A DNA stretch of 64,000 nt from an uncultured Eubacteriales bacterium (GCA_964400015.1 CAYNRR010000008.1:644-64643); one strand, 5' to 3'; shown: positions 29,281 through 64,000, numbered from the stretch's first letter. The notes: generated by a model from the letters alone, not told the origin. A program made the numbers and translations.

Positions 29281-29357
29281 ATCAACTGCTATAAGTCTTG
29301 AGGGTATTATTAAATAATACTAAAATAGATAAATCAAAATATCGGAGGTGCAATAAC

Positions 29358-29492
29358 ATGAAAAGAACATTCCAACCAAAAAATAGACAAGAAAAAAGAG
29401 AACATGGTTTTAGAGCAAGAATGAAAACAGCTAACGGTAGAAAAGTATTAAAAAGAAGAATGTTAAAAGGTAGAAAGAAACTTTCTGCATAA
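29358..29492 (+). CDS. rpmH: 50S ribosomal protein L34.
   Basis: [42 protein letters not shown]. The table start is an upstream extension. Confidence 0.95.
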
Positions 29493-29564
29493 TTTTAACC
29501 ATGTATAGTCGGGCCCCAAGAGGGCCTTTTTACTTATCTAGAAAGAAATTGGGAGGTGACGCCT

Positions 29565-45960: not shown

Positions 45961-46057
45961 AAATTCGGAAAATCTAACCACTAGATTCTAATTTATATAA
46001 GAGGTATTATGATAGCGAATAGTAGTAGCTATTAGTTTTCAAGGAGGTATCGTACAT

Positions 46058-49000
46058 ATGAGAAAACAAAAAGGTATTTCTATGGTTTCGTTAGTTATAA
46101 CAATCGTAGTCTTATTCATATTGCTTGGAATAGGTTTTTCGTATTCCAATAATTCAATAAAACAAGCTGGTAGAGGAGTGTTTGTCAGAGAACTTTCACT
46201 TGTTCAACAAGCAGCTAACGAAAAGAAATTAGATAACCAGATTGAAGGTAGTTCAGAAGAAATAAAGTTTAAAGGCTTTTATAAAACGAAAATAAAAAAT
46301 CCTCCTGTAAGTTTTGCGAGCTTTAGTGAAGATGAAATCTATGGATATGTAATAGACCTAGAATACGTTCATACAGAAGATGCAGACAGAGGACATGATT
46401 ACAAACGTTTTGCTAAAGACATAGAAAATAACGTTGTCGAATTCGGAAAAGACGATGTATATGTATGCGATAAAGACGGAAATGTATTTTATGCAAAAGG
46501 TTATCAAACGGATGAAGGAACATACTATTCAAAAAATGAAATAGAAGGACTAGGACCAGAATTCGTATCGATAGATAAAATAATATCATCAGATGCAAAG
46601 AGTGCAATAATAAGAGTCGTAGTAAAGAAAAGCAATAGTGGAGATCTAAGCTTAAAAGTAGACGATGAAGATGCAACAAAAATAGGAACATCAGATGATG
46701 GCACGATGGATACATTTGAAAAAGAAGTGTTTGAAAACAAAACATACAAACTAACAGCAGCAGAAGAAAAAGATGGAACAATAGGAAAAACAACATCATC
46801 AGTAGAAGTAACAGAACTAGACGTAATCACATACGTAATGAAATACGATGCAAACGGTGGAACAGATGCACCAGCATCACACTTGAAAACAGAAAATATA
46901 ATAGCAAGATTATCAACGCAAATTCCAAATAGAGATGGCTACACATTTTTAGGATGGAACGAAAATCCATCAGCAACAATAGCAACATACAAACCAGGTG
47001 GTGAGTATGTATTCGATAGAGACATAACATTCTTCGCAGTATGGAAAGAAGGAAAAGTAAGAACATACAATGTAACATATAATGCAAATGGTGGTACAAA
47101 TGGACCACTATCACAAGAAAACTTAAGTGGAGATTATACAATATCAAACATAACTCCAACTAGAGATGGATATGGCTTCTTAGGTTGGAACGAAGATTCA
47201 AGAGCAACAACAGCCACATACAATCCAGGCGACACAATCACACTTACAAAAAATTTAGCATTATATGCAATATGGGCAAAAGGAACATACACAGTAACAC
47301 TATCAACAAATCCAGAAGGAGCAGGAACAGTAACAGGTAGCACGGCAAAAGTAGATGGAGTTGAAACATACATATCAACAATAGCAAATCCAGGATACAT
47401 ATTTAAAAATTGGACAGTAAAATCAGGAAGCATAAACTTAAAAAATTCAGCATCAACAACAACATCATTCATAATGCCAAAAGAAAATGTAGAAATAGTA
47501 GCAAATTATGAAGTTGGAGATTTAACAGTAAAATACAATGCTAATAAAGGAAAAGGTGCACCATCAGAAGAATCAGCAAAATACGGCGACACAATAATAA
47601 TAAGTCCTAAAATTCCAACAAGGGCAGGATATGACTTCGTAGGTTGGTCATTAAAACAAACAGCAACAGAAGGAACATACTTTGCAGGACAAACATATAC
47701 AGTAAAAGAAAACGTAACATTTTATGCAATATGGAAAGAAAACATTCCAACATACACATTAACATTCAACTTGAATGGTGGATATGGAAACAAAGCAGGA
47801 GAAATAGGAAAATTTGCATCAATAACAAAAGTAAAAGGTGGAAAAATAACAATCCCAGTAGGTGGTGCAGACGAACCATATAGAAAAGATTATGTATTCA
47901 AAGGCTGGGCATTAAATCCAGACTCAAAAGAAGTAGTTTTAAATCCAGGAGACATATATTCAAAAGATGCAGACATAGAAATATATGCAGTATGGAAAGA
48001 TGAAACACCACCAACATTAGTATTAACACCAAAACAAGAAGAAGGTTCAAGCGAAGTAAAAATTATAGCAACAGCACATGACGAAGGAAGCCTTGCTGGA
48101 TATGCTTGGACAAAAACAAACGTAGAACCAACAATATGGGAAACAGAAGAAATAAAAGGAACAGACCTAACAGTAGAAAAAACAATAAAAGAAAAAGGAG
48201 AACACTACTTTTGGGTAAAAGACACAGCAGGAAACGTAGTATCAGAATCAATAAAAGCATACGAAATAAAATATGATGCAAACGGTGGAACAAATGCACC
48301 AGAAACACAATATCAACTAGAAAACGTAGACTTAAGGTTATCAACACAAAAACCAAAATTAGAACAATATACATTCTTAGGATGGTCAACATCAGCAGCA
48401 CCAGGCAATACAGAAAGTGACGTAAACTTTAAAAGTGGAGCAATATTAAATATAAACTCAGACATCACACTAAAAGCAGTATGGGGTGAAGCAGGCTTCA
48501 AGCTAAGCACGAAAAATGTGACAACACAAATAGATGGACCAAGTGTAACAGTAACAGTAACAAAAAGTTCATACACAGGAAACATAACAGTATCAAGTGC
48601 AGACACAGAAAAAGCTACAGCAACAATAAAAGACAACACAATAACAATAACACCAGGAACAAAAATCGGTGATGTAGAAATAACAGTAACAGAAGATGCA
48701 GAAGGAACAACAGAAAAAATACTAGTAATAGTAAATAGAGGAATAAGAAAAATAACATTAGACAAAACAGAAACAGAATTCACATATGGAGACTCAAGTG
48801 AAAAAATAGGATTCACATATAACGGAAAATCAACAACATTATCAACACAAACAAGCAACTCAGAAGTTGCAACAGCAACAGCAACAGACAAAACACTTAC
48901 AATAAAACCAAAAAATACAGGAACAGCAACAATAACATTAGTGTTAGCTCAAGACGATCAATACTTAGAACAAACAGCAAAAGTAGAAGTAACAATAACA

Positions 49001-52000
49001 AAGAGAAAAATAATAGTTACACCAGACGCAAATCAAAACAAAGAATATGACGGAACAGCGTTAACACCAACAATAACATACACATACACAGGCAACAAAG
49101 GAAGCGAAACACCAAAATTCACAGGAGAACTAGCAAGAGAAATAGGAAGTGAAATAGGGGAATATGTAATAACAATAGGAACATTAGCATTAGCAGACAA
49201 CGGAGACTTCAAAGCATCAAACTACACATTAGAACTATCAACAACAAAAATATATTTCACAATAACAGCAAAAAAAATAGCAGTACCATCAGCAATAACA
49301 CCACAAGAATATGATGGAACAACAAAATACGGTGTAGCAGAAGGCGAATACTATATAAGAGGTGGAGAATATCAAAAAATAAATGCAGGCAAATACACAG
49401 CAACAGTAACACTAAAAGACATCAAAAACTATGTATGGGAAGACACAAACACAACAACAGCCAAAAACATAAAATGGGAAATCACCAGATATAATCTATC
49501 AAATGCAGATATTACCGTAGAAACAATACCAAATAAAGAATACACAGGAACTGAAATAACACCAATTCCAGTAGTAAAAAAAGGCGAAACAACATTAGAA
49601 AACGGAAACGATTATACATTAACATACAAAAACAACGTAAATGTAGGAACAGCAACAATAACAATAGAAGGAAAAGGCAACTATGAAGGAACATTAACAA
49701 CAACATTTGAAATAACATCAGCAACAATGCAAGTAGACGCATCAGGATATACAGGAATGTATGACAATGCAAATCACTCAATAAAAGTAACACCAATATG
49801 GCCAACAGCAGGATACACAATATACTACTCAACAATAGAACTAACGCAAGCAAACTACAAAACAGACGGAACAACAACAAATCCAACATACAAAGATGTA
49901 GGAACAACAACAGTGTACTACTACATAGTAGCGTCAAACTTCAAAGACTACACAGGAAACGAAACAATAAAAATAACATCAAAAGATATATCAGGAAACT
50001 TAACAATATCAGGAATCGTAGACAAAACATATACAGGTAGTCAAATAACACAAACAATAACAGTAAAAGATAATGATCAAAATAGAAACCTAGAAGAAGG
50101 AAAAGAATACACAGTAACATATAAAGACAACATAAAAGTAGGAACAGCAACAATAACAATAGAAGGAAAAGGCAACTACGCAGGAACAATAACAAAAACA
50201 TTCAAAATACTAGGAGACACAATCACAATAGCAAAAGACACAGAAGCAGTAGTAGAAAAGCTAGAAATAACAATAACAAGAACACTAACACCAGGAAAAC
50301 TACAATACAAAATAAACAATGGAGAATGGAAAGACTACAGAGGACCATTTGAAATAACAGAAGACTGTACAATTTATGCACGTTCAATAGATGGAGAAAA
50401 CATACTAGGAACAAACGAACTACAAATAACAAACATATGTGAGCACGAATACACAGAAGTAACATGTACAGAAGACTCAGTATGTAAATATTGTGGAAAA
50501 CTAAACAAAGAAAAACTAGGACATGACTTCACATCAAAAACACCAACAGTAGCATATCAATGCACAGCAACAACATGTACAGAAAAAGCAACATACTACT
50601 ACAAATGTACAAGATGTACAGAAAAAGGAACAGAAACATATGAATATGGCGAAGCACTAGGCCATGACTTCACATCAAAAACAGCAACAGCAACATATCT
50701 ATGTACACCAGCAACATGTACAGAAAAAGCGACATACTACTACAAATGTACAAGATGTGCCGCAAAAGGGACAGAAACATACGAATACGGAGAACCAGAC
50801 GGCCACGACTTCACTTCAAAAACACAAACACAAGAATACTGGAAATCAGACGCAACATGTACAGTAGCAACAACATACTACTACAAATGTACAAAATGTG
50901 AAGCAAAAGGAACAGCAACATACACAGTAGGAAGTCCACTAGGACATGACTTCACAGAAAAAATAATAAACGACACATACATCTGCACAACAGCAACATG
51001 TACAAAACCAGCAACATACTATTACAAATGTTCAAGATGTAACGAAAAAAGCACAGAAACATATGAATACGGTGAACCACTAGGACATAGTTATGGAGAA
51101 TATGTAGAAAAACAAGCTGCAACATGTGTAACAGAAGGAATAGAAGAAGCAACATGTATAAGATGTGGAACCACAACAACAAGAACAACAGCAACAAATC
51201 CAGAAAACCACGAAGGCACAATACAAGAAATAGAAATAACAGCCGCAACATGTACAACAACAGGAAGAAAGAAATACGTATGCTCAGCATGTAACGGTAT
51301 AATAAGATACGAAACAATAGCAGCACTAGGCCACGACTGGGATGCAGAAGAGCCACCAAGAGAATGTAGAAGATGTGGCTTAAGAGAAGAATACGTAGCA
51401 CAAGCAATCTACTGCGAATCAGACGGCTCATTAACATTTATAAAGAGTTTAACAGAATACCAAGCAGGCGATACATATGATGGAAAAATAGTAACAGTAG
51501 TGTATAAGGGGTTTGAGACAGAGGAATATTCGAGTGGAACAGCTGTACCTTGGTATGAAAATAGAGAAAAAATCACAAGTGTTAGAGTAACAGATAGTAT
51601 CGAACCAATAAGTACAGCATATTGGTTTAAAAATTTTGAAAATTGTGGATCGTTCGATTTAGGAAAGCTTATTACAGACAATGTAATAGATATGAAATAT
51701 ATGTTTAGTCGAGCAGGATATAATGCAGAAAGAGTAGAAATTGCTGGACCACGTTCATGGGATACATCAAAAGTAACAGATATGAGTTTCATGTTTGAAT
51801 ATACAGCATGTACTTCTGAGATATTTACTCTAGACTATTTAGATAATTTAGATGTTTCTAGTGTAACCAATATGCAAGGTATGTTTAATACTACAGCTAT
51901 TAGCACTACAACATGGAGTATAGGTAACTTAAGTAATTGGAATGTATCGAACGTAATAGATATGTCAAGCATGTTTGCATGTGCAGGATATTATTCTACA

Positions 52001-55000
52001 GTATGGAGCGTTGGTGACTTGAGTGATTGGAACGTATCGAATGTGATAAATATGAGTGGTATGTTTGATTGTGCAGGTTATAATACAAAATTATTTAAGA
52101 TTGGAGACATAGGCAAATGGGATGTGCTAAACGTAACTAATATGTCGAATATGTTTCATTGTGCAGGACATAATGCATCTGAATTATGGAGTATAGGAGA
52201 TTTAAGCAACTGGGATGTATCCAATGTAACTAACATGAAAGAATTGTTTATGGCAGCAGGTTTTCTAGCTACTAATTGGGACATAGGAGATTTAAGCAAC
52301 TGGGACGTATCGAGTGTAACTAATATGGACTCAATGTTTACATACATAGGTGGTAAATCGAGAGATTTAGATATAGGAAAACTAAATAACTGGAATGTTT
52401 CAAATGTAACTAATATGCATGGAATGTTTTGTTATGCTGGTAGTGAAAAAGCCCTTACATTTGATATAGGAAATTTAGATGCCTGGAATGTCTCAAACGT
52501 AACAGATATGAGTTTGATGTTTGCTGGTGCTGGAAACAGTGCACAAAAATGGAATATAGGAGATTTAGGTGCATGGAATACATCGAAGGTTGCAGATATG
52601 CGACAAATGTTCTATGTGTGTAGAAATCTAAAAGAACTAAACTTAAGTGGATGGGATACAAGCAATGTAACAACAATGGAAGAAATGTTCTATGGATGTT
52701 ATAAATTAGAAGAGATTAGCTTAGGCAAAAATTTCAAATTTGTTGGAACAAACGGTTACTTACCAGCCCCAAGTAGCACACACATCACAGGAGCAAACGG
52801 CTTATGGTACAACAAAGCAACAGGAATTGGCTATGCACCGGAAGATATACCAAATAACACAGCAGCAACGTATACAGCATTTCCACCGAAAACAGCACAA
52901 GCAATCTACTGCGAATCAGACGGTTCATTAACATTTATAAAAGATACGCCGTATACGGTTGGTGGAACGTATAATGGAAAAACAATAACAGCAGTGTATA
53001 CAGGATTTGAAACAGAGGAATATTTTACAGATACAGATATACCTTGGTACGAAAACAGAAACAACATTACAAGTGTTGTATTTAAAGATAAAATAACTCC
53101 TCTTAGAACAGCATATTGGTTCTATAAGTTTGAAAATTGTGCAAATTTTGATGTAACTAATTTAGATACTTCTAATGTTAGTTCGATGACTTATATGTTT
53201 GGATTAGCAGGTTTTGAATCAAGTAGTACAACATTTAAAATTATTGGAATGGATAGTTGGAATACAAGTAATGTACAGAGTATGTATAGAATGTTTAGAT
53301 ATGCTGGCACCAAAGCCATAACATTTGATATAGGTGATTTGAGTAACTGGGATACTTCCTTAGTACATGATATGAGCGGTATGTTTTATAGTACAGCAGA
53401 TAGAGCGACAACGTTTGACATTGGTGATATAGGTAAATGGGATGTATCAAATGTATGGGAAATGGACAGTATGTTTAATAATACTGCTGGTGAATGTCAA
53501 ACGTTTAATATAGGCGATTTAAGTAATTGGAATGTATCAAAAGTAACTACTATGTCAAACATGTTTAGTAATATTGGTGGTTTTTATTGTACAACATTTG
53601 ATATTGGTGATATAGGTAAATGGAATGTATCAAGCGTAACAGACATGTCATATATGTTCTATTCTGTTATATGTAATAAAGGTACAACGTTTAATATAGG
53701 CGATTTAAGTAATTGGAATGTGTCAAATGTAACAGATATGTCATATATGTTTGCGGTTTGTGCTAATAATAAAGCATCTAAATTTAATATAGGCGATTTA
53801 AGTAATTGGGATGTATCAAACGTAACTAATATGGCGGGAATGTTTTCTTATTTAGGTGCTAGTGCCACAACGTTGAGTATAGGAGACTTAAGTAATTGGA
53901 AAGTATCAAATGTAACGAATATGCATGGTATGTTTGAATCAGCAGGTCAGAATGCTGCAACATTTAACATTGGTAATATAGGCAAATGGGATGTATCAAA
54001 AGTTACAGATATGTATGGTATGTTTGATTCTACAGCTAATAGTGCCACAACATTTAATATAGGAGACTTAAGTAACTGGAATGTGTCAAACGTGACAGAT
54101 ATGGGAAGGATGTTTACTGCTGTTGCAGAAAATGTGACTGAACTTAATATAGGAGATTTAGGATCTTGGAATACTTCAAAAGTAACCAATATGTCAGAGA
54201 TGTTCAGAGGATGTACTAAATTAAAAACACTAAACCTAAGTGGATGGGACACAAGCAATGTAACCAAAATGTCAAATATGTTCTATCATTGTTATAACTT
54301 ACAAGAAGTTACACTAGGTAAAAAATTCAGCTTTGTAGGAACAGATGGCTACTTACCAGTACCAAGTGGTACATATATTACAGATGCAACTGGTCTATGG
54401 TACAACAAGGCAACGAAAGTTGGTTATGCACCAGAAGATATACCAAATAAGACAGCAGCAACATACGTAGCATATCCTGTAAAAACAGCGCAAGCAATCT
54501 ACTGTTCATCAGATAATTCATTAACATTTGTAAATAGTACAACACTATATTCAGTAGGTGGTAAATATAGCAATAAAACAATAACAGCAGTATACACAGG
54601 GTTTGAAGATGAAGAATATTCATGGAACAATAATGTACCTTGGTATAACTACAGAGAAAGTATAAAGAGTGTTACAGTAAAAGATACAATAACACCAAAA
54701 AGTACAGCATACTGGTTTGAAGAATTCAAAAACTGTAGTACGTTTACTGTAACAAATTTAGACGTATCCAAAGTAAAAAATATGACAAGCATGTTCAGTA
54801 ATGCAGGTTTAAAATCTACATCATACAAAATAACTGGAATGAATAACTGGGACGTATCAAATGTAACAGATATGAGTTATATGTTTGCATATTCACAATC
54901 TTGGTCAGCTGATGGAGGTCCACAATGGACATCATTTAATATAGGTGACTTAAGTAAATGGAATACAAGCAAAGTTACAGATATGTCAAATATGTTTACA

Positions 55001-58000
55001 GCATTTGGATCAAAAGTTAAAACTTTAAATCTAAGCACTATCAAATTTAACAGTTGGGATGTATCAAATGTAACAGATATGAGCAGTATGTTTTATAGTA
55101 CAGGTTACAATTCTACAAGTTTCACATTAGACATAAGCGGATGGGACACATCAAATGTAACAAATATGACCATGATGTTTGATGAAACTGCGTATAGTGC
55201 AACAACAATAAACATTACTGGTTTAAATACATTAAACACATCAAAAGTAACTTCGATGACGGCTATGTTTAATAAATTCGGATACAAAATAAAATCTCTA
55301 ACCATAGGAGATTTAAGTGGTTGGGATGTATCAAATGTAACAAGTATGTATAATATGTTTGCATCTGCAGGATATACAGCAACAACATTTAAAATAGTAG
55401 GATTAGATAACTGGGACGTATCAAAAGTTGAGACTATGGCTGGAATGCTCCAAACTGCAGGCTATAGTGCAACAACATGGAATATAGGAAACTTAAGTAA
55501 TTGGAATGTATCAAAAGTTACTAAATTTGGTGATTTATTAAATGATTTAGTAATTGATGGAGACACAATAACTTATACAGGTACAGGAATGTTTGCATTT
55601 GCAGGATACAATGCCACGGCATGGGATGTAGGCGATTTAAGTAGCTGGGATGTATCAAATGCAGACGATATGGCAGGAATGTTCTGTAGTGCAGCTAATA
55701 AAGCTACAACATTTAACATAGGAGATATTGGAGGATGGAATACAGCAAAAGTCACAGATATGAGAGCAATGTTCGCAACAGCAGGAAAAAATGCAACAAC
55801 ATGGAATATAGGTGATTTAGGAGCATGGAAAACATCAAACGTAACAAACCTTTCACACATGTTCTGGGGTTGTGATAAGATAAAAGAACTAAACCTAAGT
55901 GGATGGGATACAAGTAGAGTAACAGCAATGTCAAACATATTTGCTGGTTGCTATAACTTACAAGAAGTTTCATTAGGCAAAAACTTCAAATTCGTTGGAA
56001 CAGATGGCTATTTACCAGTGCCAAGTAATACATATATTACAGACGCAAACGGCTTATGGTATAACAAAGCAACAGGAATAGGTTATGCACCATCTGCTAT
56101 ACCAAACAACACAGCAGCAACATATACAGCAGTTGCGCCAAAAGTAATAAGAGCAATCTATTGCGAATCAGACGGTTCGTTAACATTCATAAATCAATCA
56201 ACACTATATTCAGTAGGCGATACATATGATGGAAAAACAATAACAGCAATATATACAGGATTTGAAAATGTTGAATACGCATGGAACAAAAATCCGGTTT
56301 GGTATGCTAATAGAGAAAACATAAAGAGTGTTGTAGTAAAAGACACAATAACACCAATAAGTACAGCATATTGGTTCTATGAATTCAAAAATTGTAGTAC
56401 ATTTGATGTAACAAATTTAGATGTATCAAATACAACAACAATGTCAAGAATGTTCTGGGATGCAGCTGTAAATTGTACATCATATACTATAACAGGAATG
56501 AATAATTGGGATGTAAGTAATGTAACGAACATGAGTCATTTATTTGGCTACACACCAACTTATGTAGACGGAGGTCCACAATGGACAAAATTCAGTTTTG
56601 GTAGTTTAAGCAAATGGAACACAAGCAAAGTAACAGATATGTCAAATATGTTTTTTACTTTTGGAAGTAAACTTACAACTTTCGATTTAAGTTCTATTGG
56701 AATTAACAGTTGGGATGTATCAAATGTAACCGACATGAGTAGTATGTTTTATGAAGCAGGATATTATTCTACAACATTTAAACTAGATATAAGCAACTGG
56801 AAAACATCAAGTGTTACAGACATGAGTATGATGTTTTTTGGTGCAGCGTATAGTGCAACAAGCATGACTCTAAAAGGAATAAATACATTAGATACATCAA
56901 AAGTAACTTCAATGTCCACGATGTTTGCTGATTTTGGATACAGCATCAAATCTTGGACTATAGGAAATTTAAGTAATTGGGATGTGTCAAATGTAACAAG
57001 TATGTACAGAATGTTTGATAATGCAGGACATACTGCAACAACATTTAAATTAGAAGGATTAAATAATTGGAATGTATCAAATGTAGTAACTATGTATAAG
57101 ATGTTTTATGATACAGGACTTAATGCTACAACGTGGAGTATAGGAGATTTAACAAACTGGAACGTATCGAATGTAACAGATATGGAAGATATGTTTTATC
57201 TAGCAGGCGCTACTGCCAAAACATTTAACATAGGTAATTTAGATAATTGGAATGTATCAAAAGTAACAAATATGTCTGGAATGTTTCATGCTGCAGGTAC
57301 AAGTGCTACCACATGGAATATAGGTGACTTAAGTAATTGGGATGTATCAAAAGTAACTAACTTTGGTAAGTCTTGGAAAAGTCCAGTGATAGATGGAAAT
57401 AAAATAACTGTTTATGCAACTGGGATGTTTTTAAACGCTGGATACAAAGCAACCACATGGAATATAGGTGACTTAAGTAATTGGGATGTATCGAGTGCAG
57501 AAAGCATGTCATCAATGTTCTTTGGAGCAGGTTATAGTGCGACAACATTCAATATAGGAGACATTGGAGGATGGAATACATCTAAAGTAACAGATATGAG
57601 CACTATGTTTGCAGTTGCAGGTGAAAATGCTACCACATGGAATATAGGCGATTTAGGAGCGTGGAGAACATCAAATGTAACAAACCTTTCAAGTATGTTT
57701 TGGGGTTGTAATGAAATAAAAGAACTAAATTTAAGTGGATGGGACACAAGTAGTGTAACAACAATGTCAAACATGTTTGATGGTTGCGTAAAACTAGAAG
57801 AAGTTTCATTAGGCAAAAACTTCAAATTTGTAGGAACAGACGGCTACTTGCCAGAACAAAGTAGTACATATATTACAGGAGCAAATGGCTTCTGGTATAA
57901 CAAATCAACAAAAGTAGGATATGCACCAGCATACATACCAAACAACACAGCAGCAACATACGTAGCATATCCACCAAAAACAGCACAAGCAATCTACTGT

Positions 58001-59629
58001 GCATCAGACGGATCACTAACATTTATAAATCAATCAACATTGTACGCAGCAGGAAGTACATACAATGGAAAGACAGTAACAGCAGTGTATACAGGATTTG
58101 ATACTGATATATATTGGTCATATAGTCAACTTCCTTGGTATGATTATGTAGAAGCTATAAAAAGTGTAGTAGTAAGTGATGAAATAAAACCAATATCTAC
58201 TGCACGTTGGTTCCAAGGTATGGAAAATTGCAAAAAGTTCGATTTAACTAAACTTAATACATCACAAGTAAAATATATGCATTATATGTTCAAATATGCT
58301 GCATATCAGCCAACAAGCATTACATTAACTGGTTTAGATAGTTGGGATACTTCAAATGTTACTATGATGTATAGTATGTTTGAGTACTTTGGAAATAAAG
58401 TAAAAACATTAAATTTAGATTTAAGTAATTGGGACACATCAAAGATTACAGATATGGAGCGAATGTTTGACGGAACTGGAGCTAGTTCTACCACTTTGAC
58501 AATTACTCTTAGTAATTGGGATACATCAAATGTAAAATATATGAAAGAGATGTTTAGCTGTGCGGGTTGCAATGCGACGACAGTAAAAATTCTTGGGCTT
58601 ACTAATTGGGATGTATCAAATGTTGAAGAAATGAAATGGATGTTTAAACAAACTGGTGAAAGTGCCACAACATTCAAAATAGAAAGTCTTACTAATTGGA
58701 AAACATCAAAAGTTGTGGATATGGAAAATATGTTAGGCGATGCGGGTATGTCGGCAACAACATGGAGTATAGGAGATTTAAGTAATTGGGATGTATCAAA
58801 TGTTGAAAATATGCATTGGTTGTTTTCTTTTGCAGGAAGAAGTTGTACAAGTTGGAGCATAGGAGACTTAAGTAATTGGGATGTATCAAATGTAACTAAT
58901 ATGAGTCGAATGTTCCAATACGCAGGTGAAAGTGCTAAATCATGGAGCATAGGAGACTTAAGTGATTGGGATGTATCAAATGTAGAAAACATGGATGGTA
59001 TGTTTGAATACGCTGGATATTCATCAACTACATTTAAATTGGTAGGTTTAGATAGTTGGGATGTATCAAATGTAACAGATATGTCTAGTATGTTTGATAG
59101 TACAGGATATAAAGCTACAACATGGAGTATAGGCAATTTAAGTAATTGGGACGTATCGAATGTAACAGATATGAGTGGTATGTTTAGTCACGCTGGTTAT
59201 ACAACAACAAACTGGAGTATAGGAGATTTAAGTAACTGGAATGTATCAAATGTAATAAGCTTTGGATATGCATGGGATGAGCCAGAAGTTAGTGGAAGCA
59301 CAATATCATTCTATGGTGTAGGAATGTTCTTAAATGCGGGAGCTAAAGGCAAAACATTTAATATAGGCGACTTAAGTGGCTGGAACGTATCAAAAGCCGA
59401 AGAAATGGCAGGAATGTTCTTTGGAGCAGGAAGTAGTGCAACAACATTTAAGATAGGAAACATCAGTAGTTGGAACACATCAAAAGTAACAGACATGCGA
59501 GCAATGTTTGCATGCACCGGAACAAAAGCATCATACAAATTAAACTTATCCGGCTGGAATGTAAGCAACGTTGAATATTCAACATACTTCAATTGGGGTT
59601 CAACCTCAAAAGTCACCTCCCCATTCTAG
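46058..59629 (+). CDS. Giant (4523 aa) repeat-rich cell-surface protein, paralog B. Prepilin-like N-terminus, conserved N-domain, Listeria-Bacteroides (Flg_new) repeats, MBG/Ig-like repeats, 5x Cys-rich repeats, and six BspA/DUF285-type super-repeats.
   Basis: One ORF with an AAGGAGGT SD. Flg_new repeats (DGYTFLGWNENPSATIATYKPG...FFAVW). MBG-like (GTATITIEGKGNYEGT). 26-aa repeats (NWDVSNVTDMSSMFxxAG). The minus-strand ORFs listed inside are antisense artefacts. Confidence 0.9.
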   Translation: MRKQKGISMVSLVITIVVLFILLGIGFSYSNNSIKQAGRGVFVRELSLVQQAANEKKLDNQIEGSSEEIKFKGFYKTKIKNPPVSFASFSEDEIYGYVIDLEYVHTEDADRGHDYKRFAKDIENNVVEFGKDDVYVCDKDGNVFYAKGYQTDEGTYYSKNEIEGLGPEFVSIDKIISSDAKSAIIRVVVKKSNSGDLSLKVDDEDATKIGTSDDGTMDTFEKEVFENKTYKLTAAEEKDGTIGKTTSSVEVTELDVITYVMKYDANGGTDAPASHLKTENIIARLSTQIPNRDGYTFLGWNENPSATIATYKPGGEYVFDRDITFFAVWKEGKVRTYNVTYNANGGTNGPLSQENLSGDYTISNITPTRDGYGFLGWNEDSRATTATYNPGDTITLTKNLALYAIWAKGTYTVTLSTNPEGAGTVTGSTAKVDGVETYISTIANPGYIFKNWTVKSGSINLKNSASTTTSFIMPKENVEIVANYEVGDLTVKYNANKGKGAPSEESAKYGDTIIISPKIPTRAGYDFVGWSLKQTATEGTYFAGQTYTVKENVTFYAIWKENIPTYTLTFNLNGGYGNKAGEIGKFASITKVKGGKITIPVGGADEPYRKDYVFKGWALNPDSKEVVLNPGDIYSKDADIEIYAVWKDETPPTLVLTPKQEEGSSEVKIIATAHDEGSLAGYAWTKTNVEPTIWETEEIKGTDLTVEKTIKEKGEHYFWVKDTAGNVVSESIKAYEIKYDANGGTNAPETQYQLENVDLRLSTQKPKLEQYTFLGWSTSAAPGNTESDVNFKSGAILNINSDITLKAVWGEAGFKLSTKNVTTQIDGPSVTVTVTKSSYTGNITVSSADTEKATATIKDNTITITPGTKIGDVEITVTEDAEGTTEKILVIVNRGIRKITLDKTETEFTYGDSSEKIGFTYNGKSTTLSTQTSNSEVATATATDKTLTIKPKNTGTATITLVLAQDDQYLEQTAKVEVTITKRKIIVTPDANQNKEYDGTALTPTITYTYTGNKGSETPKFTGELAREIGSEIGEYVITIGTLALADNGDFKASNYTLELSTTKIYFTITAKKIAVPSAITPQEYDGTTKYGVAEGEYYIRGGEYQKINAGKYTATVTLKDIKNYVWEDTNTTTAKNIKWEITRYNLSNADITVETIPNKEYTGTEITPIPVVKKGETTLENGNDYTLTYKNNVNVGTATITIEGKGNYEGTLTTTFEITSATMQVDASGYTGMYDNANHSIKVTPIWPTAGYTIYYSTIELTQANYKTDGTTTNPTYKDVGTTTVYYYIVASNFKDYTGNETIKITSKDISGNLTISGIVDKTYTGSQITQTITVKDNDQNRNLEEGKEYTVTYKDNIKVGTATITIEGKGNYAGTITKTFKILGDTITIAKDTEAVVEKLEITITRTLTPGKLQYKINNGEWKDYRGPFEITEDCTIYARSIDGENILGTNELQITNICEHEYTEVTCTEDSVCKYCGKLNKEKLGHDFTSKTPTVAYQCTATTCTEKATYYYKCTRCTEKGTETYEYGEALGHDFTSKTATATYLCTPATCTEKATYYYKCTRCAAKGTETYEYGEPDGHDFTSKTQTQEYWKSDATCTVATTYYYKCTKCEAKGTATYTVGSPLGHDFTEKIINDTYICTTATCTKPATYYYKCSRCNEKSTETYEYGEPLGHSYGEYVEKQAATCVTEGIEEATCIRCGTTTTRTTATNPENHEGTIQEIEITAATCTTTGRKKYVCSACNGIIRYETIAALGHDWDAEEPPRECRRCGLREEYVAQAIYCESDGSLTFIKSLTEYQAGDTYDGKIVTVVYKGFETEEYSSGTAVPWYENREKITSVRVTDSIEPISTAYWFKNFENCGSFDLGKLITDNVIDMKYMFSRAGYNAERVEIAGPRSWDTSKVTDMSFMFEYTACTSEIFTLDYLDNLDVSSVTNMQGMFNTTAISTTTWSIGNLSNWNVSNVIDMSSMFACAGYYSTVWSVGDLSDWNVSNVINMSGMFDCAGYNTKLFKIGDIGKWDVLNVTNMSNMFHCAGHNASELWSIGDLSNWDVSNVTNMKELFMAAGFLATNWDIGDLSNWDVSSVTNMDSMFTYIGGKSRDLDIGKLNNWNVSNVTNMHGMFCYAGSEKALTFDIGNLDAWNVSNVTDMSLMFAGAGNSAQKWNIGDLGAWNTSKVADMRQMFYVCRNLKELNLSGWDTSNVTTMEEMFYGCYKLEEISLGKNFKFVGTNGYLPAPSSTHITGANGLWYNKATGIGYAPEDIPNNTAATYTAFPPKTAQAIYCESDGSLTFIKDTPYTVGGTYNGKTITAVYTGFETEEYFTDTDIPWYENRNNITSVVFKDKITPLRTAYWFYKFENCANFDVTNLDTSNVSSMTYMFGLAGFESSSTTFKIIGMDSWNTSNVQSMYRMFRYAGTKAITFDIGDLSNWDTSLVHDMSGMFYSTADRATTFDIGDIGKWDVSNVWEMDSMFNNTAGECQTFNIGDLSNWNVSKVTTMSNMFSNIGGFYCTTFDIGDIGKWNVSSVTDMSYMFYSVICNKGTTFNIGDLSNWNVSNVTDMSYMFAVCANNKASKFNIGDLSNWDVSNVTNMAGMFSYLGASATTLSIGDLSNWKVSNVTNMHGMFESAGQNAATFNIGNIGKWDVSKVTDMYGMFDSTANSATTFNIGDLSNWNVSNVTDMGRMFTAVAENVTELNIGDLGSWNTSKVTNMSEMFRGCTKLKTLNLSGWDTSNVTKMSNMFYHCYNLQEVTLGKKFSFVGTDGYLPVPSGTYITDATGLWYNKATKVGYAPEDIPNKTAATYVAYPVKTAQAIYCSSDNSLTFVNSTTLYSVGGKYSNKTITAVYTGFEDEEYSWNNNVPWYNYRESIKSVTVKDTITPKSTAYWFEEFKNCSTFTVTNLDVSKVKNMTSMFSNAGLKSTSYKITGMNNWDVSNVTDMSYMFAYSQSWSADGGPQWTSFNIGDLSKWNTSKVTDMSNMFTAFGSKVKTLNLSTIKFNSWDVSNVTDMSSMFYSTGYNSTSFTLDISGWDTSNVTNMTMMFDETAYSATTINITGLNTLNTSKVTSMTAMFNKFGYKIKSLTIGDLSGWDVSNVTSMYNMFASAGYTATTFKIVGLDNWDVSKVETMAGMLQTAGYSATTWNIGNLSNWNVSKVTKFGDLLNDLVIDGDTITYTGTGMFAFAGYNATAWDVGDLSSWDVSNADDMAGMFCSAANKATTFNIGDIGGWNTAKVTDMRAMFATAGKNATTWNIGDLGAWKTSNVTNLSHMFWGCDKIKELNLSGWDTSRVTAMSNIFAGCYNLQEVSLGKNFKFVGTDGYLPVPSNTYITDANGLWYNKATGIGYAPSAIPNNTAATYTAVAPKVIRAIYCESDGSLTFINQSTLYSVGDTYDGKTITAIYTGFENVEYAWNKNPVWYANRENIKSVVVKDTITPISTAYWFYEFKNCSTFDVTNLDVSNTTTMSRMFWDAAVNCTSYTITGMNNWDVSNVTNMSHLFGYTPTYVDGGPQWTKFSFGSLSKWNTSKVTDMSNMFFTFGSKLTTFDLSSIGINSWDVSNVTDMSSMFYEAGYYSTTFKLDISNWKTSSVTDMSMMFFGAAYSATSMTLKGINTLDTSKVTSMSTMFADFGYSIKSWTIGNLSNWDVSNVTSMYRMFDNAGHTATTFKLEGLNNWNVSNVVTMYKMFYDTGLNATTWSIGDLTNWNVSNVTDMEDMFYLAGATAKTFNIGNLDNWNVSKVTNMSGMFHAAGTSATTWNIGDLSNWDVSKVTNFGKSWKSPVIDGNKITVYATGMFLNAGYKATTWNIGDLSNWDVSSAESMSSMFFGAGYSATTFNIGDIGGWNTSKVTDMSTMFAVAGENATTWNIGDLGAWRTSNVTNLSSMFWGCNEIKELNLSGWDTSSVTTMSNMFDGCVKLEEVSLGKNFKFVGTDGYLPEQSSTYITGANGFWYNKSTKVGYAPAYIPNNTAATYVAYPPKTAQAIYCASDGSLTFINQSTLYAAGSTYNGKTVTAVYTGFDTDIYWSYSQLPWYDYVEAIKSVVVSDEIKPISTARWFQGMENCKKFDLTKLNTSQVKYMHYMFKYAAYQPTSITLTGLDSWDTSNVTMMYSMFEYFGNKVKTLNLDLSNWDTSKITDMERMFDGTGASSTTLTITLSNWDTSNVKYMKEMFSCAGCNATTVKILGLTNWDVSNVEEMKWMFKQTGESATTFKIESLTNWKTSKVVDMENMLGDAGMSATTWSIGDLSNWDVSNVENMHWLFSFAGRSCTSWSIGDLSNWDVSNVTNMSRMFQYAGESAKSWSIGDLSDWDVSNVENMDGMFEYAGYSSTTFKLVGLDSWDVSNVTDMSSMFDSTGYKATTWSIGNLSNWDVSNVTDMSGMFSHAGYTTTNWSIGDLSNWNVSNVISFGYAWDEPEVSGSTISFYGVGMFLNAGAKGKTFNIGDLSGWNVSKAEEMAGMFFGAGSSATTFKIGNISSWNTSKVTDMRAMFACTGTKASYKLNLSGWNVSNVEYSTYFNWGSTSKVTSPF
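50438..51390 (+). repeat. Tandem Cys-rich module inside the giant gene: five copies of an about 46-aa repeat (LGHDFTSKT..Y.CT.ATCTEKATYYYKCTRC..KGTETYEYGE), then CxxC/zinc-ribbon-like units.
   Basis: Read directly from the translation. A paralogous module lies in gene A at about 5350-6180 (minus strand). Confidence 0.8.
51398..59629 (+). repeat. Six super-repeats of about 1.5-1.8 kb (about 500-600 aa each). Each runs AQAIYCESDGSLTF...PWYENR...STAYWF..F.NC, then tandem 26-aa DUF285/BspA repeats, then LNLSGWDTSNVT...LGKNFKFVGTDGYLP...GLWYNKAT.GYAP..IPN.TAATY.
   Basis: Module starts near 51398, 52896, 54489, 56150 and 57984, with high DNA identity at the boundaries. Confidence 0.85.
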
Positions 59630-60147
59630 AGGGACGTCCGTTAAATGTGTCACCAATCTTTTAAATGCTTGCAGTGAAAGAAAAAGGCGAAAAATAAATA
59701 GCAAAAAAGTGAGACACTTTAGCAGTGAGAAAAAGTTATTTGTAACGAGAAAAATTATTTTAATTGACAAGTATCAAAAAACAATTTAATATAAAGTCGG
59801 TTGAAGAAAATGTACTGAATAAAAAATGGACAGTATAAAAACTTTAGCCGACTTTATTTTTATACGAAAATTGCATAATAAAGTTTCAACCACAAAACGC
59901 AATAAACTAATTTTCGTATAAAACCAATTCTAATTCGCAAAATTCTTTGCGAAAATTTCCAAATTTTAAAATTCAAATATAAAAAGGACTGATGCCTATG
60001 CACACGTAAGGCTTTTTGCGTATAATTCAATATTAGAACGTAGTATAAATGGTGGCAAAATTAAATTATTTCACTATTATACTGCTTTATTTTCATACTC
60101 AAAATTTGCAAAATCCCCCACAAAAACCATTTAAGAAAGGAACACAC

Positions 60148-61062
60148 ATGATACTAAAAGAAGAAATATTAAGCAAGATCACGCCTAAAAATGACGTTAT
60201 CTTTAAAAAGATTTTCGGAGCGAGAGGAAACGAAGGAATCTTAAAAAGCTTCCTTGAAAGCATATTAGACATAGAAATTGAATCACTAGTAGTAGACTTA
60301 GGGACCGAACTATTGCCAGACTTCTACGACGGCAAACTCTCAAGACTAGATGTAAGAGCAACTTTAAATGACGGCACAATTGTAAACATTGAAGTGCAAA
60401 CAAATATGCATGACTACACTGATAAAAGAAGTCTAGCATATTGGAGCAAAGTTTATTTGGAACAATTCAAGCAAGGACAAAACTATAAGAATGCCAATAA
60501 AACAATTTGCATATGGATACTAGACGGGCAAGTATACGACTTTCCGGAATACCATTCAAAATGGAAAGTTGCTGAAGTAACAAACGGCCAAACAAAATAC
60601 TTTGATGACTTTGAAATACACGTAATAGAGTTGCAAAAATTCAGGAAACTAGATATAATTGAACCGAAGAAAAAAGAATTTTGGCTATGGTTCATCGACC
60701 ATACCAAAAAGGAGATGGTCGAGATGTCAAGTTATACACTAGAAGAAATAAAGAAAGCCAAAGCAGAATACGAAAAAATGATAGCCGAAGAACCAGAACT
60801 ACAACATTTCCTAATGCGTGAAGAATTCGCAGCAATGGATAGAGCACAAGAACTAAGCGATGCAAGAGAGAAAGGTATAAAAGAAGGCAAAGAGGAAGGT
60901 TTAAAAGAAGGACTAGAAGCTGGCAAAAAAGAAGGCTTGCAAGTTGGCAAAAAAGAAGAAAAACTAGAAACAGCTAAGAAAATGCTGGAAAAAGGTATTG
61001 ACATAAAAACAATCGCAGAGATAACAGGCCTTACCGAAGAAGAGATTAGGGACGTCCGTTAA
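60148..61062 (+). CDS. Rpn-family recombination-promoting nuclease/putative transposase (PDDEXK_7, YhgA-like), copy 1.
   Basis: NDVIFKKIFG, RLDVRA...VNIEVQ (PD-(D/E)xK core), C-terminal EKG/KEG low-complexity region. Start aligned to copy 2 (GAAAGGAACACAC ATG); the table's 60049 start is an extension. Confidence 0.75.
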   Translation: MILKEEILSKITPKNDVIFKKIFGARGNEGILKSFLESILDIEIESLVVDLGTELLPDFYDGKLSRLDVRATLNDGTIVNIEVQTNMHDYTDKRSLAYWSKVYLEQFKQGQNYKNANKTICIWILDGQVYDFPEYHSKWKVAEVTNGQTKYFDDFEIHVIELQKFRKLDIIEPKKKEFWLWFIDHTKKEMVEMSSYTLEEIKKAKAEYEKMIAEEPELQHFLMREEFAAMDRAQELSDAREKGIKEGKEEGLKEGLEAGKKEGLQVGKKEEKLETAKKMLEKGIDIKTIAEITGLTEEEIRDVR

Positions 61063-61469: not shown

Positions 61470-62348
61470 ATGACATTAAAAGAGGAAATATTAAGCAAGA
61501 TCACACCTAAAAATGACGTTATATTCAAGAAAATATTCGGAGCGAGAGGAAATGAAGGAATCTTAAAAAGCTTCCTTGAAAGCATACTAGATATTGAAAT
61601 CGAATCGCTAGTAGTAGACTTAGGGACCGAACTATTGCCAGACTTCTACGACGGTAAACTCTCAAGATTAGATGTAAGAGCAACTTTAAACAATGGCACA
61701 ATTGTAAACATCGAAGTGCAAACAAATATGCACGACTATACCGATAAAAGAAGCTTAGCATACTGGAGCAAAGTCTACTTAGAACAATTCAAACAAGGAC
61801 AAAACTACAAGAATGCCAATAAAACAATTTGCATATGGATACTAGACGGACAAGTATACGACTTTCCGGAATACCATTCAAAATGGAAAGTTGCTGAAGT
61901 AACAAACGGCCAAACAAAATACTTTGATGACTTTGAAATACACGTAATAGAGTTGCAAAAATTCAGGAAACTAGATATAATTGAGCCAAAGAAAAAAGAA
62001 TTTTGGCTATGGTTTATCGACCATACCAAAAAGGAGATGGTCGAGATGTCAAGTTACACACTAGAAGAAATAAAGAAAGCCAAGGCAGAATATGAAAAAA
62101 TGATAGCCGAAGAACCAGAACTACAACACTTCCTAATGCGTGAAGAATTCGCAGCAATGGACAGAGCACAAGAACTAAGCGATGCAAGAGAGAAAGGACT
62201 AGAGGAAGGTAAAAAAGAAGGAATAGCAACTGGCAGAAAAGAAGAAAAACTAGAAACAGCCAAGAAAATGCTAGAAAAAGGCATCGACATAAAAACAATC
62301 TCAGAAGTAACAGGTCTTACCGAAGAAGAGATTAGGGACGTCCGTTAA
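61470..62348 (+). CDS. Rpn-family recombination-promoting nuclease/putative transposase, copy 2 (about 95% identical to copy 1, with a shorter EKG tract).
   Basis: Same motifs. Antisense ORFs at 61525-62298 are artefacts. Confidence 0.75.
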   Translation: MTLKEEILSKITPKNDVIFKKIFGARGNEGILKSFLESILDIEIESLVVDLGTELLPDFYDGKLSRLDVRATLNNGTIVNIEVQTNMHDYTDKRSLAYWSKVYLEQFKQGQNYKNANKTICIWILDGQVYDFPEYHSKWKVAEVTNGQTKYFDDFEIHVIELQKFRKLDIIEPKKKEFWLWFIDHTKKEMVEMSSYTLEEIKKAKAEYEKMIAEEPELQHFLMREEFAAMDRAQELSDAREKGLEEGKKEGIATGRKEEKLETAKKMLEKGIDIKTISEVTGLTEEEIRDVR

Positions 62349-62520: not shown

Positions 62521-63249
62521 ATGCTTATAATTACTAAAAAAGACATATTGTTTTATTTGCTTACATTGTTGTGCTTTTTCTTTGTGTTAACCATGCCACT
62601 TAATTTAAAAGAAAACCAAAAAAGCCAAACTATATCCCAAAATATTCAAAATCAAAAAGAAATAAAAATTGTAATTGACGCAGGACATGGAGAACCAGAT
62701 GGCGGAGCAGTTTCTGCAAGTGGAATAAAAGAAAGTGAATTGAATTTGCAGATCGCTCAAAAATTAAAAAACAAATTGGAAGAAATAGAAAACGTAAAAG
62801 TTATCATGACGAGAGAAGACGAAAATAATATTGCATCAAATTCAAATGAGCAAATGACGATAAAACAATTGAAAACAAATGATTTAAACAATCGAGTAAA
62901 GATTGCAAACGAAAGTGGAGCAGTAATAATGGTTTCGATACATATGAACAAATTTGAAAATCCTAAATATAGAGGTTGGCAAACTTTTTATTCAAAAACT
63001 TCTGAAGAAGGCAAAAAACTAGCCGAAGAAATTCAATCTTCAATAGGTGAAAGTATAAACATAGAAAACAATCGAACAGCTTTAAAAATTGAAGGAATAA
63101 AAATAATCGACAAAACTCAAATTCCAACAGTGATAGTCGAATGTGGATTTTTGTCAAATGTAGAAGAATGTCAATTATTGCAGGACGAAGAGTATCAGGA
63201 AAAAATGGCAGAAGGCATAAAAAATGGCATACAAAAGTATTTGTTTTGA
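62521..63249 (+). CDS. cwlD: N-acetylmuramoyl-L-alanine amidase (Amidase_3, CwlD-like), membrane-anchored.
   Basis: IVIDAGHGEPDGGAVSASG...ESGAVIMVSIHMN motifs. N-terminal TM. AAGGGAGGT SD. Confidence 0.75.
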   Translation: MLIITKKDILFYLLTLLCFFFVLTMPLNLKENQKSQTISQNIQNQKEIKIVIDAGHGEPDGGAVSASGIKESELNLQIAQKLKNKLEEIENVKVIMTREDENNIASNSNEQMTIKQLKTNDLNNRVKIANESGAVIMVSIHMNKFENPKYRGWQTFYSKTSEEGKKLAEEIQSSIGESINIENNRTALKIEGIKIIDKTQIPTVIVECGFLSNVEECQLLQDEEYQEKMAEGIKNGIQKYLF

Positions 63250-63318: not shown

Positions 63319-64000
63319 ATGAAAAACAAAAAAGGAATATCAATGCTGTCAGTTGTAATTACTGTAATAGTAATTATCATATTATCTACAATCGTAATAA
63401 CAAGTTCTTCAAACTCGATATATCAAGCTGGTGAAAACAAAATAATTCAAGAGTTGGCAGAAGTTAAAAAAGGTGTAGATTCTGTGAGATTGACCAATGC
63501 CAAAACAGGAAAAACAGATGAAGAAACTATCAATAAAGGATTTATAAAAGTTAGAGTAGAAAATCCACCGGAAAATTTCGTGAGCTTTGATGAGGACAAA
63601 TCAACAGGCTACGTTGTGGATTTATCAGTAATAGATTATGAAAAATTAAAAACAGGTCGAGGTTATTTAACGCTAATGAAAGACGATATCGTAACATTCG
63701 ATGAAGATGATGTTTATTTGTATGATAATGCTGGAAAAGTTTATTATGCAAAAGGATATCAAATAGGCGAAGATGACGTATCTTATACAGCAGATAACGA
63801 TAAAAGAAAAGAAGGCCCTATAATTGAAGTTATAAGTACGAGCGATGGAGTAATCAAAGTAAAAGTAACTCCAATATACGGTGGAACAATTTCAAGTGTA
63901 ATGATAGGCACGAAGAGAGCAACAACATCAGATGGACTAAACTTTGAATTACCAGTAAATAAAAACGGCTCGTACAAAATAATAGCAACTGAAGAAGGTG
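63319..64000 (+). CDS. Third giant surface-protein paralog (paralog C). N-terminal 227 codons only; continues past the window end.
   Basis: MKNKKGISMLSVVITVIVIIIL... The N-domain aligns with 46058 and gene A (ENPPENFVSFDEDKSTGYVVDLS, DDVYLYDNAGKVYYAKGYQ). Extended -10 TGTTATAAT at 63261. Confidence 0.75.
   Translation, partial: MKNKKGISMLSVVITVIVIIILSTIVITSSSNSIYQAGENKIIQELAEVKKGVDSVRLTNAKTGKTDEETINKGFIKVRVENPPENFVSFDEDKSTGYVVDLSVIDYEKLKTGRGYLTLMKDDIVTFDEDDVYLYDNAGKVYYAKGYQIGEDDVSYTADNDKRKEGPIIEVISTSDGVIKVKVTPIYGGTISSVMIGTKRATTSDGLNFELPVNKNGSYKIIATEEG

Follow-up and report, generated by a model that had tools for sequence, protein, structure and literature searches.

We analysed a 64-kb window of DNA (the whole stretch, with positions counted from its first letter) that covers the replication-origin region of an uncultured, low-GC (~31%) Firmicute of the class Clostridia. 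Its most conspicuous gene is a giant open reading frame (ORF) at 46058-59629 on the plus strand, which runs uninterrupted for 4523 aa. We conclude, with a probability of roughly 0.6, that this ORF and its paralogs encode giant modular type IV pilins that belong to a non-canonical, Glu5-less lineage. By profile similarity and predicted structure, a pilin module takes up the first ~165 residues and consists of a 6-residue basic leader ending in Gly, an alpha-1 helix of ~55 residues and a small beta-domain. Gene order ties the lineage of this module to PilD/PilB/PilC machines, with stand-alone family members and pilins of the same helix encoded in pilMNO-pilD-pilB-(pilT)-pilC operons. The conclusion is supported by the family motif, the in-register matches to solved pilins in the PDB, the operon links, and the finding of no other anchor on the giant protein.

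A strong Shine-Dalgarno sequence, AGGAGG, is readable at 46042-46047 (plus strand), 10 nt 5' of the ATG at 46058, and the translation opens with MRKQKG/ISMVSLVITIVVLFILLG (a slash marks the predicted cleavage site throughout). The leader MRKQKG (aa 1-6, 46058-46075, plus strand) is short and basic, and its Gly(-1) marks the predicted prepilin-peptidase site G/I. It is followed by alpha-1 (aa 7-61, 46076-46240), in which the hydrophobic alpha1N ISMVSLVITIVVLFILLGIGF gives way to an amphipathic alpha1C, and then by the small globular beta-domain (aa 62-165, 46241-46552), whose alignments show the pattern NPPxxFxSF...GYVxDL...DDVYVxD..G.VFYAKG. The mature protein would carry Ile at +1, Ser rather than Glu at +5, and Thr at +9. 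The sequence-only reading of this stretch, made before the present analysis, had likened the N-terminus to a class III (type IV prepilin) signal, with a basic leader, a Gly and about 22 hydrophobic residues without an A-x-A site, and this layout is borne out. On inspection, the giant has no A-x-A site of the Sec type and its hydrophobic run is ~22 residues or longer. It also has no L-x-x-C lipobox and no Cys in its first ~130 residues, and its translation contains neither an LPXTG motif nor a C-terminal transmembrane (TM) anchor.

A six-frame scan and a more generic class III scan both placed the N-terminal motif at exactly four ORF starts in the 64 kb. The claim that all four share one motif stands for three of them, namely the giant, gene A (1-6803, minus strand, >2267 aa, running off the window edge), which starts with MKKQKG/VSMVSLVITIIVIIILS, and the ORF at 63319-64000 (plus strand, also running off the window), which starts with MKNKKG/ISMLSVVITVIVIIILS. 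The fourth, a small pilin-sized protein of 146 aa at 11439-11879 (minus strand), passes the motif scan but departs from the motif (KKNSG/LSLMT); its class-III-like N-terminus, MKIKKNSG/LSLMTVAITVIVMVILAG, is divergent.

To place these N-termini, an exhaustive hidden Markov model (HMM) search was run with the N-terminal ~190 residues; word-seeded protein searches gave only 2 and 22 unnamed metagenome proteins. At E<=1e-10 the HMM search returned one family with 201 cluster representatives, 42 of which reach E<=1e-30. Family members span 105-5654 aa, and among the 152 proteins retrieved, 25 are shorter than 200 aa and 27 longer than 2000 aa. Every source found is a metagenome or metagenome-assembled genome (MAG) of gut or rumen Clostridia. 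The 13 genomic loci recovered all belong to MAGs of uncultured Clostridia, from human, sheep, roe-deer and rabbit guts. Homologs with readable sources are all metagenomic, and they carry neither names nor precomputed Pfam domains. A phage origin was also considered and rejected, as a scan of viral contigs gave no relatives.

Position-specific conservation in this family is strong, and the motif is no chance match. At position -1, where the regular expression used for placement demanded G, A or S, Gly is found in 118, Ala in 4 and Ser in 1 of the 123 members with complete N-termini, and the preference for Gly among these three is informative despite the constraint. Position +1 is hydrophobic (Val 62, Ile 57) and never Phe; +2 is Ser in 117 members and +3 is Leu or Met; +5 is Ser (47), Ala (45), Thr (27) or Val (4), with Glu in 0/123; +9 is Thr in 105; and from +10 onward the sequence reads IIVIIILAAIAF. 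Leaders are mostly 4-13 residues long and rich in K, N and Q, and the TM helix is strongly conserved along its whole length (Ser2, Thr9, I-L at 15-16). The absence of Phe at +1 and of Glu at +5, which had been pointed out for the window's genes, thus extends to the whole family. Judged from these alignments, I/V at +1 and S/A/T/V at +5 are the rule of an entire putative pilin lineage and not an oddity of this genome.

Behind the common helix, the family divides into two subfamilies with different beta-domains: subfamily a, with the giant and the ORF at 63319, and subfamily b, with gene A. Pilins usually combine a conserved alpha-1 with a head that varies. An HMM of the subfamily-a globular part alone matches 20 external loci and two ORFs of the window, while gene A matches the subfamily-b globular HMM at E=1e-63. 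The globular part of the small ORF at 11439-11879 has no match to either HMM.

Searched against PDB sequences, a 22-sequence profile of subfamily a matched Geopilin 9egp (E=2.8e-4), 7tgg (E=1.4e-3), S. sanguinis PilE1 (8pfb, E=2.9e-3) and 8tob (E=6e-3). At E<=1 it has 13 PDB matches, of which 12 are to pilins or pseudopilins with alpha-1 in register, and the similarity covers alpha-1 only. In this register, the giant's leader and helix align with KG/FTLIE of solved pilins; alpha1N is hydrophobic throughout, and in the HMM alignment its register is identical to FTLIELLIVVAIIGILAAIA. The best PDB matches of a smaller, 6-sequence profile were also all type IV pilins, although they were not significant. 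The ORF at 63319 gave sub-threshold matches to the NCBIfam models NF007862 (PpdD pilin, E=7.6e-5) and GspG (E=0.002). N_methyl is the commonest Pfam match, sub-threshold, in 7 of the 22 members (best E=0.0024), and Pilin_N gave sub-threshold matches in 3 of the 22.

With the 22-sequence alignment, AlphaFold predicted the giant's module at a mean confidence (pLDDT) of 85 and a pTM of 0.71, as a helix over residues 9-61 (53 residues) with a small beta-domain whose strands exceed a pLDDT of 90, followed by a disordered linker from residue 164. An earlier model made with the first 6-sequence alignment (pLDDT 37) was set aside. A Foldseek search with the module model found no pilin. The core of the sequence-only reading, an adhesin carried on a non-canonical prepilin-like N-terminus, therefore holds, on the strength of the in-register pilin profile, the predicted "lollipop" of helix and beta-domain, and the kin of this module in pilD/pilB/pilC(/pilT) operons.

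These results also bear on the idea that the N-terminus is an ordinary Sec signal peptide or a generic signal-anchor and that its likeness to pilins is coincidental. Such an explanation could draw on the N_methyl and pilin NCBIfam models, which stay under their thresholds, and on the empty Foldseek result. It is, however, already disfavoured by a hydrophobic stretch of ~22 residues or more with no A-x-A, by the significant in-register profile match to solved pilins, by Gly at -1 in 118/123 members, and by the occurrence of family members inside pilD-pilB-pilC operons. We regard it as very improbable.

The operon links come from scanning metagenomes for the helix pattern, which yielded 80 loci (denoted by L numbers) in which pilins were sought by a generic class III scan. 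PilD, PilB, PilT or PilC is encoded in 20 of the 80, beside pilins with the same helix, G/ITLIALVITIIV, and no Glu5. The operon of L025 contains pilM/N-like and pilO-like genes (labelled by size and position only, having no Pfam match), PilD (A24_N_bact, 1.5e-31; Peptidase_A24, 9e-7), a canonical G/YSLIE pilin, a second pilin-like gene, PilB (T2SSE, 1e-103) and PilC (T2SSF, 4e-30). Directly 3' of PilC lies a 195-aa stand-alone member of subfamily b, which is 45% identical to the gene A module over 153 aa. Independently, L026 encodes PilB, PilC and then a subfamily-b member. Three tandem pilins of L053, which begin with MKKQKG/ITLVSLVITIIVLLILVG, are found immediately upstream of PilD, PilB, PilT and PilC; these reach 20.3-20.4 bits against N_methyl, and NCBI names them "type II secretion system GspH family protein" (MCX4303659-61). 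Over a 25-residue comparison, the alpha1N segments of the window share 9-18 residues with the operon-encoded pilins versus 4-8 with canonical pilins. Stand-alone pilins of subfamily b form a cluster of 25 members on up to 59 contigs, with no name.

In the 11 machinery loci where the class III scan found pilins, those beside PilD all lack Glu5. Type IV pilus operons of gut metagenomes with PilD, PilB, PilT and PilC were noted in L053 (9550-17153), L030, L033, L040, L056, L063, L087 and L094, and a PilN-domain protein was confirmed in L053. The pilins beside PilD in L040, L053, L056, L063 and L087 have neither Glu5 nor Phe1 and carry G/ITLIALVITIIVLLILAG. We found neither operons in which every PilD-adjacent pilin lacks Glu5 nor the helix motif in the literature searched, and bacterial type IV pili with apparent major pilins devoid of Glu5 seem not to have been described as a lineage before.

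Four of the loci (L021, L023, L024 and L025) belong to one human-gut assembly, at 3.8-5.1x coverage. This fits a single genome that holds both the operon and dispersed large subfamily-b members bearing Thr-rich MBG stalks. Tetranucleotide correlation gave no support for one genome, with all low-GC Clostridia loci correlating at 0.96-0.99.

Several observations weigh against a pilin identity for the giant itself. No PilB/GspE-type ATPase, PilC/GspF platform protein, A24 prepilin peptidase or PilT is encoded in the 64-kb window, and pilus machinery is likewise missing within 10 kb of ~27 loci with the giant's subfamily-a module and at all 13 MAG loci. Direct operon linkage is confined to subfamily b and to pilins with the helix in common. 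Between subfamilies a and b, hhalign detects no homology of the beta-domains and aligns alpha1C only, at 68% probability, so this linkage is not simply transferable to subfamily a. Pfam N_methyl (PF07963) scores 16.6 bits on the giant, below its cutoff of 21.2. Glu5, which is normally needed for the polymerisation of type IV pilins, is absent from the giant and the whole family. Finally, a membrane anchor might be enough for an ectodomain of 4,500 aa to reach the surface, with no pilus involved.

The last point leads to the main alternative, in which the module is a pilin-derived membrane anchor that enters no filament: alpha1N, cleaved by the peptidase or not, would tether the adhesin to the cytoplasmic membrane, and the stalk would cross the wall. 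A stalk of ~1,600 aa before the PARCEL modules could span the wall unaided, Glu5 is missing in all members, and no machinery is found near any subfamily-a locus. Instead of pilus operons, subfamily-a genes (X) occupy two conserved housekeeping slots. One is gyrB-pgm-X; the other runs from rsmA through a response regulator (RR)-GGDEF gene to X with an Amidase_3 gene adjoining, and is syntenic in the window, L003/L004 and L014-L017, the amidase of L014-L017 lying on the opposite side of X relative to the window. In the window, this N-acetylmuramoyl-L-alanine amidase lies at 62521-63249 (plus strand; Pfam E=3e-48), and it is kept beside family genes in L003 (9704-10432), L004 (9708-10304) and L014-L018. 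It may be a wall-remodelling accessory for bulky surface proteins, a role that would fit local remodelling around a bulky membrane-anchored protein. There is also a precedent in Sulfolobus, some of whose non-filament proteins have class III signals (PMC3047682), and archaeal sugar-binding proteins with such signals (the "bindosome") offer a comparable case. On the other hand, conservation of the whole helix (Ser2, Thr9, I-L at 15-16) is typical of packing in a filament core and not of a generic anchor, stand-alone members of 150-200 aa would be buried under the wall with no obvious use as anchored monomers, and subfamily-b members occupy the pilin slot of pilus operons. We therefore consider a filament-free anchor a serious competitor to the modular pilin, but on balance an unlikely one.

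In L014-L017, three genes fill the giant's slot. They encode a 151-aa pilin-like protein, a membrane protein of ~250 aa and, with an ordinary Sec signal, a protein of 1,500 aa whose Cys-rich and MBG_2 modules are related to the giant's aa 900-1300. One complete triad is visible at L015:10001-15906 (a 151-aa pilin-like protein, a 257-aa TM protein and a 1,500-aa Cys-rich/MBG adhesin). At L018:644-14974, a separate contig on which Amidase_3 is the sole housekeeping neighbour in view, a pair made of a ~240-aa TM protein and a ~1,200-aa Sec-signal adhesin occurs three times, with a 153-aa pilin-like gene before the third pair; the adhesins have clear AYA/A signal sites. Compared with the module of the 63319 ORF, the stand-alone pilin-like proteins show identities of 55% in L015 (151 aa) and 54% in L018 (153 aa). 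The ~245-aa membrane protein of L015 and L018 has no Pfam match and no counterpart in the giant. As the slot of the fused giant holds split pilin-like and adhesin genes in L014-L017, there is modest support for the view that pilin module and adhesin are functional partners that became fused in the window's lineage.

The same arrangements could point to secretion assistance, in which the modules, especially the ~150-aa stand-alone ones, form a short piston like that of the type II secretion system (T2SS) and drive or escort large Sec-exported adhesins across the thick wall, escort and cargo being fused in the window's lineage. This would account for the order seen in L015 and L018, where the pilin-like gene is followed by the ~245-aa membrane protein and a Sec-signal adhesin of 1,200-1,500 aa, for the MBG-type and Cys-rich modules that these adhesins share with the giant, and for the T2SS GspH-family name that NCBI gives to related operon pilins. 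A type IV pilus set proposed to act in secretion in Clostridium perfringens (bioRxiv 10.1101/2024.11.04.621531) also counts in its favour. Nevertheless, the triads and pairs come without an ATPase or platform gene, the split adhesins are homologous to the giant only over stretches of ~100-430 aa at 24-38% identity, and covalent fusion of a cargo to its piston makes for an awkward mechanism. A pseudopilus of this kind appears improbable.

Small pilin-like genes also occur in tandem directly 3' of truB, as sets of ~155, 350 and 350 aa in L011 (8433-11047), L012 (9983-12659) and L013 (9047-11637), and as two genes of ~160 and 630 aa in L009 (9500-11899). A family-2 glycosyltransferase gene follows the sets in L011-L013, and no ATPase was found near any of the four. 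These sets resemble a minor-pilin operon.

Beyond the pilin module, the giant has the layout of a modular pilin, with the module (aa 1-165), a linker at which the AlphaFold pLDDT collapses (residues 164-170), and then Flg_new, Flg_new_2, DUF285 and LRR_5 domains. Listeria-Bacteroides (Flg_new/InlB B-repeat-like) repeats and Ig-like segments occupy ~aa 256-815 (46823-48502, plus strand, boundaries approximate); Pfam finds Flg_new in 5 stretches (E=2.8e-40) and Flg_new_2 (E=7e-13), TIGR02543 is also matched, and a Y.V.Y[DN]ANGG motif recurs in the translation. Next comes a Thr-rich stalk of MBG/Big-like repeats, delimited by composition (18-22% Thr) at ~aa 816-1484 (48503-50509). The Thr richness noted for the giant from sequence alone is confirmed, with 12.9% Thr in the whole 4523-aa protein and 18-22% in aa 750-1750. 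The stalk is 31-38% identical to MBG_2-containing proteins of L015 and L018, and its repeats also occur in L023 and L024. A repeat search then found four tandem 47-aa Cys-rich repeats (GHDFTSKT..C..TCTEKATYYYKCTRC; 50510-51073) with 72-87% nucleotide identity and no Pfam match, which may be a metal- or disulfide-stabilised module. Gene A and the Sec-signal adhesins of L015 and L018 have similar Cys/His-rich segments.

The C-terminal 2,740 aa are made of PARCEL/DUF285 (BspA-like leucine-rich repeat, LRR) sequence, as the sequence-only reading had recognised (PF03382, E=0, 27 stretches; TIGR02167, E=6e-183, 46 stretches), and the protein also exceeds the cutoff of NF045896 (Mbov_0838_LP; 521.6 bits versus 500). 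An LRR_5 domain was found as well. This region (51404-59626) divides into five super-repeats of 499-612 aa, starting at aa 1783, 2282, 2813, 3366 and 3978 (nt 51404, 52901, 54494, 56153 and 57989). They consist of ~61 units in total with a 90-nt period, that is ~30 aa and not the 26 aa first proposed. Nor are the super-repeats near-identical, as had been stated, for they share 50-70% identity pairwise in protein and <=75-78% in DNA. Consequently, the suggestion that they are well suited to size and antigenic variation does not follow, and easy variation by recombination is not supported. Recent cassette exchange, or a high potential for recombination, was ruled out as well, given the <=75-78% DNA identity of the within-gene repeats and the 67-70% DNA identity between gene A and the giant. 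As to variation, the data speak solely for divergence between species.

If the giant is indeed a modular pilin, it would be inserted through the signal recognition particle and Sec as a bitopic protein with its N-terminus in and its C-terminus out. A PilD-type prepilin peptidase would then cut after Gly6 and leave Ile7 as the new, possibly N-methylated N-terminus, and alpha1N would dock the module into a type IV filament. Since an appendage of >4,300 residues would not fit the body of a filament, the module would most likely sit at the filament tip or in the priming complex. The Listeria-Bacteroides repeats, MBG stalk, Cys-rich repeats and five PARCEL/LRR solenoids could together form a long multivalent adhesin that passes through the wall and the S-layer. 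Because every pilin of the lineage lacks Glu5, the N-terminus would have to be neutralised in another way during subunit packing, as in archaeal type IV filaments.

The closest parallels are the modular pilins, in which a pilin module is joined to adhesive modules and for which a location at the pilus tip has been argued (as for PilB and PilC of S. sanguinis; PMC8179133). With these the giant shares a pilin module, a short linker, C-terminal adhesive modules, an expected location at the tip, and a monoderm Firmicute host. PilB and PilC differ from it in that they have a canonical class III signal with Glu5 that is detected by IPR012902, a size of ~50 kDa as against 4,523 aa for the window's protein and 5,654 aa for the family maximum, and genes within the pil operon, whereas the giants are dispersed on the chromosome. 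The survey of modular pilins by Raynaud et al. (2021) used IPR012902, and the most extreme multi-domain example that it cites has 860 aa (PMC8179133). Surveys of this type would miss the present family, whose members are Glu5-less and remain below the N_methyl threshold.

The loss of Glu5 has parallels of its own. GspK and S. sanguinis PilA have no Glu5, yet are processed and located at the tip (PMC9934059). Like them and the PilX "K" subunits, the giant lacks Glu at +5, has a degenerate class III signal that standard tools miss, and is bulky enough to fit only at a tip. In those systems, however, a single subunit lacks Glu5 and the major pilin has it, whereas in the present lineage the pilins beside PilD lack it in the 11 loci scanned. 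Moreover, the extra domain of GspK is inserted in the pilin beta-sheet, while the giant's modules are appended C-terminally, and no gspHIJK-type operon accompanies the window's genes, whose neighbours are rsmA, the RR-GGDEF gene, the amidase and PDDEXK_2 genes. Archaeal class III signals (type IV pilins, archaellins, the bindosome; Pilin_N) resemble those of the family in their basic leader ending in Gly, Ala or Ser, their lack of Glu5 and their small or hydrophobic residues at +1/+2, and in archaea such signals occur on large non-filament proteins too. Unlike the archaeal systems, the family has a bacterial host, and the linked peptidase is of the bacterial PilD type with an A24_N_bact domain.

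On the adhesin side, the giant's C-terminal repeats belong to the same tandem repeat family as the PARCEL/DUF285 proteins of Mollicutes and Listeria (TIGR02167, PF03382, Mbov_0838, Listeria lipo_26). Those proteins are lipoproteins or Sec-secreted, whereas the giant has no lipobox and a putative pilin-module anchor, and it is further set apart by its five super-repeats of 500-600 aa with a 30-aa period. The gut order TANB77 is known to have a Tad-type cluster that includes unannotated pilin-like proteins (PMC11680825). By its description, it is similar in coming from uncultured low-GC gut Clostridia and in having unannotated small and large (up to 621 aa) pilin-like proteins with a single TM helix, but its machinery is Tad-type (CpaB, TadZ, CpaE, TadA, TadBC) and not PilD/PilB/PilC.

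Among the window's other family genes, gene A has a module with the pattern MKKQKG/VSMVSLVITIIV...QIYNYIAKDG...KYAVTKEGQIFTWPPY, followed by Cys-rich repeats and PARCEL super-repeats. It has its C-terminal architecture in common with the giant, and as the protein identity there is only 48-52%, the two are old paralogs on sequence grounds. The 63319 ORF carries a subfamily-a pilin module of the form MKNKKG/ISMLSVVITVIV... and lies just beyond the amidase gene. Between the giant and the amidase are two tandem genes of the PDDEXK_2 (PD-(D/E)XK nuclease-family, transposase-like) type, at 60049-61062 and 61470-62348, which look like an insertion, since the syntenic loci L003 and L004 are without them at that place. 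The small ORF at 11439-11879 abuts a PP-loop/TilS-like ATPase gene on the same strand (10696-11436, minus), which in turn lies beside the gene (7876-10692, minus) of a 938-aa protein bearing a NAGPA phosphodiester-glycosidase domain, and the three genes (7876-11879) look like one operon.

Elsewhere in the window, the genes dnaA, dnaN, recF and gyrB are on the minus strand, and rnpA, yidC, jag, mnmE, mnmG, rsmG, parA and parB on the plus strand; the likely oriC lies at 27231-29903, between dnaA (minus) and rnpA (plus), and the sign of the GC skew flips at ~28 kb. MecA, an SLH-domain protein and DUF4446 in the window fit Clostridia. An LD-carboxypeptidase is split into ORFs for the Peptidase_S66 N-domain (13160-14032) and the S66C C-domain (14043-14360), probably a frameshift or a pseudogene, and an intact paralog is present at 19161-20168. 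A cluster of aminoacyl-tRNA-synthetase-like paralogs (14488-19075) includes a HisZ/HisRS-like protein of 414 aa, far under the family cutoffs, an AsnA/AsnRS-core-like protein of 344 aa, and a short ProRS of 420 aa, which the bacterial models match in two stretches, so that it apparently has no insertion domain.

Modular pilins are a recently recognised route by which type IV pili gain functions, and the giant would extend the size range of pilin-borne adhesins about five-fold. The family itself, which numbers hundreds of proteins and belongs to abundant, uncultured Clostridia of gut and rumen, is unnamed and has no Pfam domain, and the motif G/[IV]S[LM][IV]xLVITI[IV]V provides a simple handle for its annotation. 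The Glu5-less pilins in linked operons challenge the textbook need for Glu5 in the assembly of bacterial type IV filaments, and the lineage offers a bacterial system in which to ask how such filaments pack. Extending this to the lineage as a whole, we tentatively propose that gut and rumen Clostridia have unstudied type IV filaments whose pilins all lack Glu5 and Phe1 and bear the signature G/[IV][ST][LM][IV]xLVITIIV, that their modules were repeatedly fused to adhesin arrays of several thousand residues, and that the giants are true tip subunits. If so, no larger pilins would be known than the window's 4,523-aa protein and its relatives, which reach 5,654 aa, and a retractile pilus would deploy, and possibly reel in, a multivalent PARCEL/LRR adhesin of >100 nm. 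Archaeal-like packing without Glu5 would then be driven by a bacterial PilD/PilB/PilT/PilC machine. The proteins of this family are probably major surface and host-interaction antigens of uncultured gut commensals.

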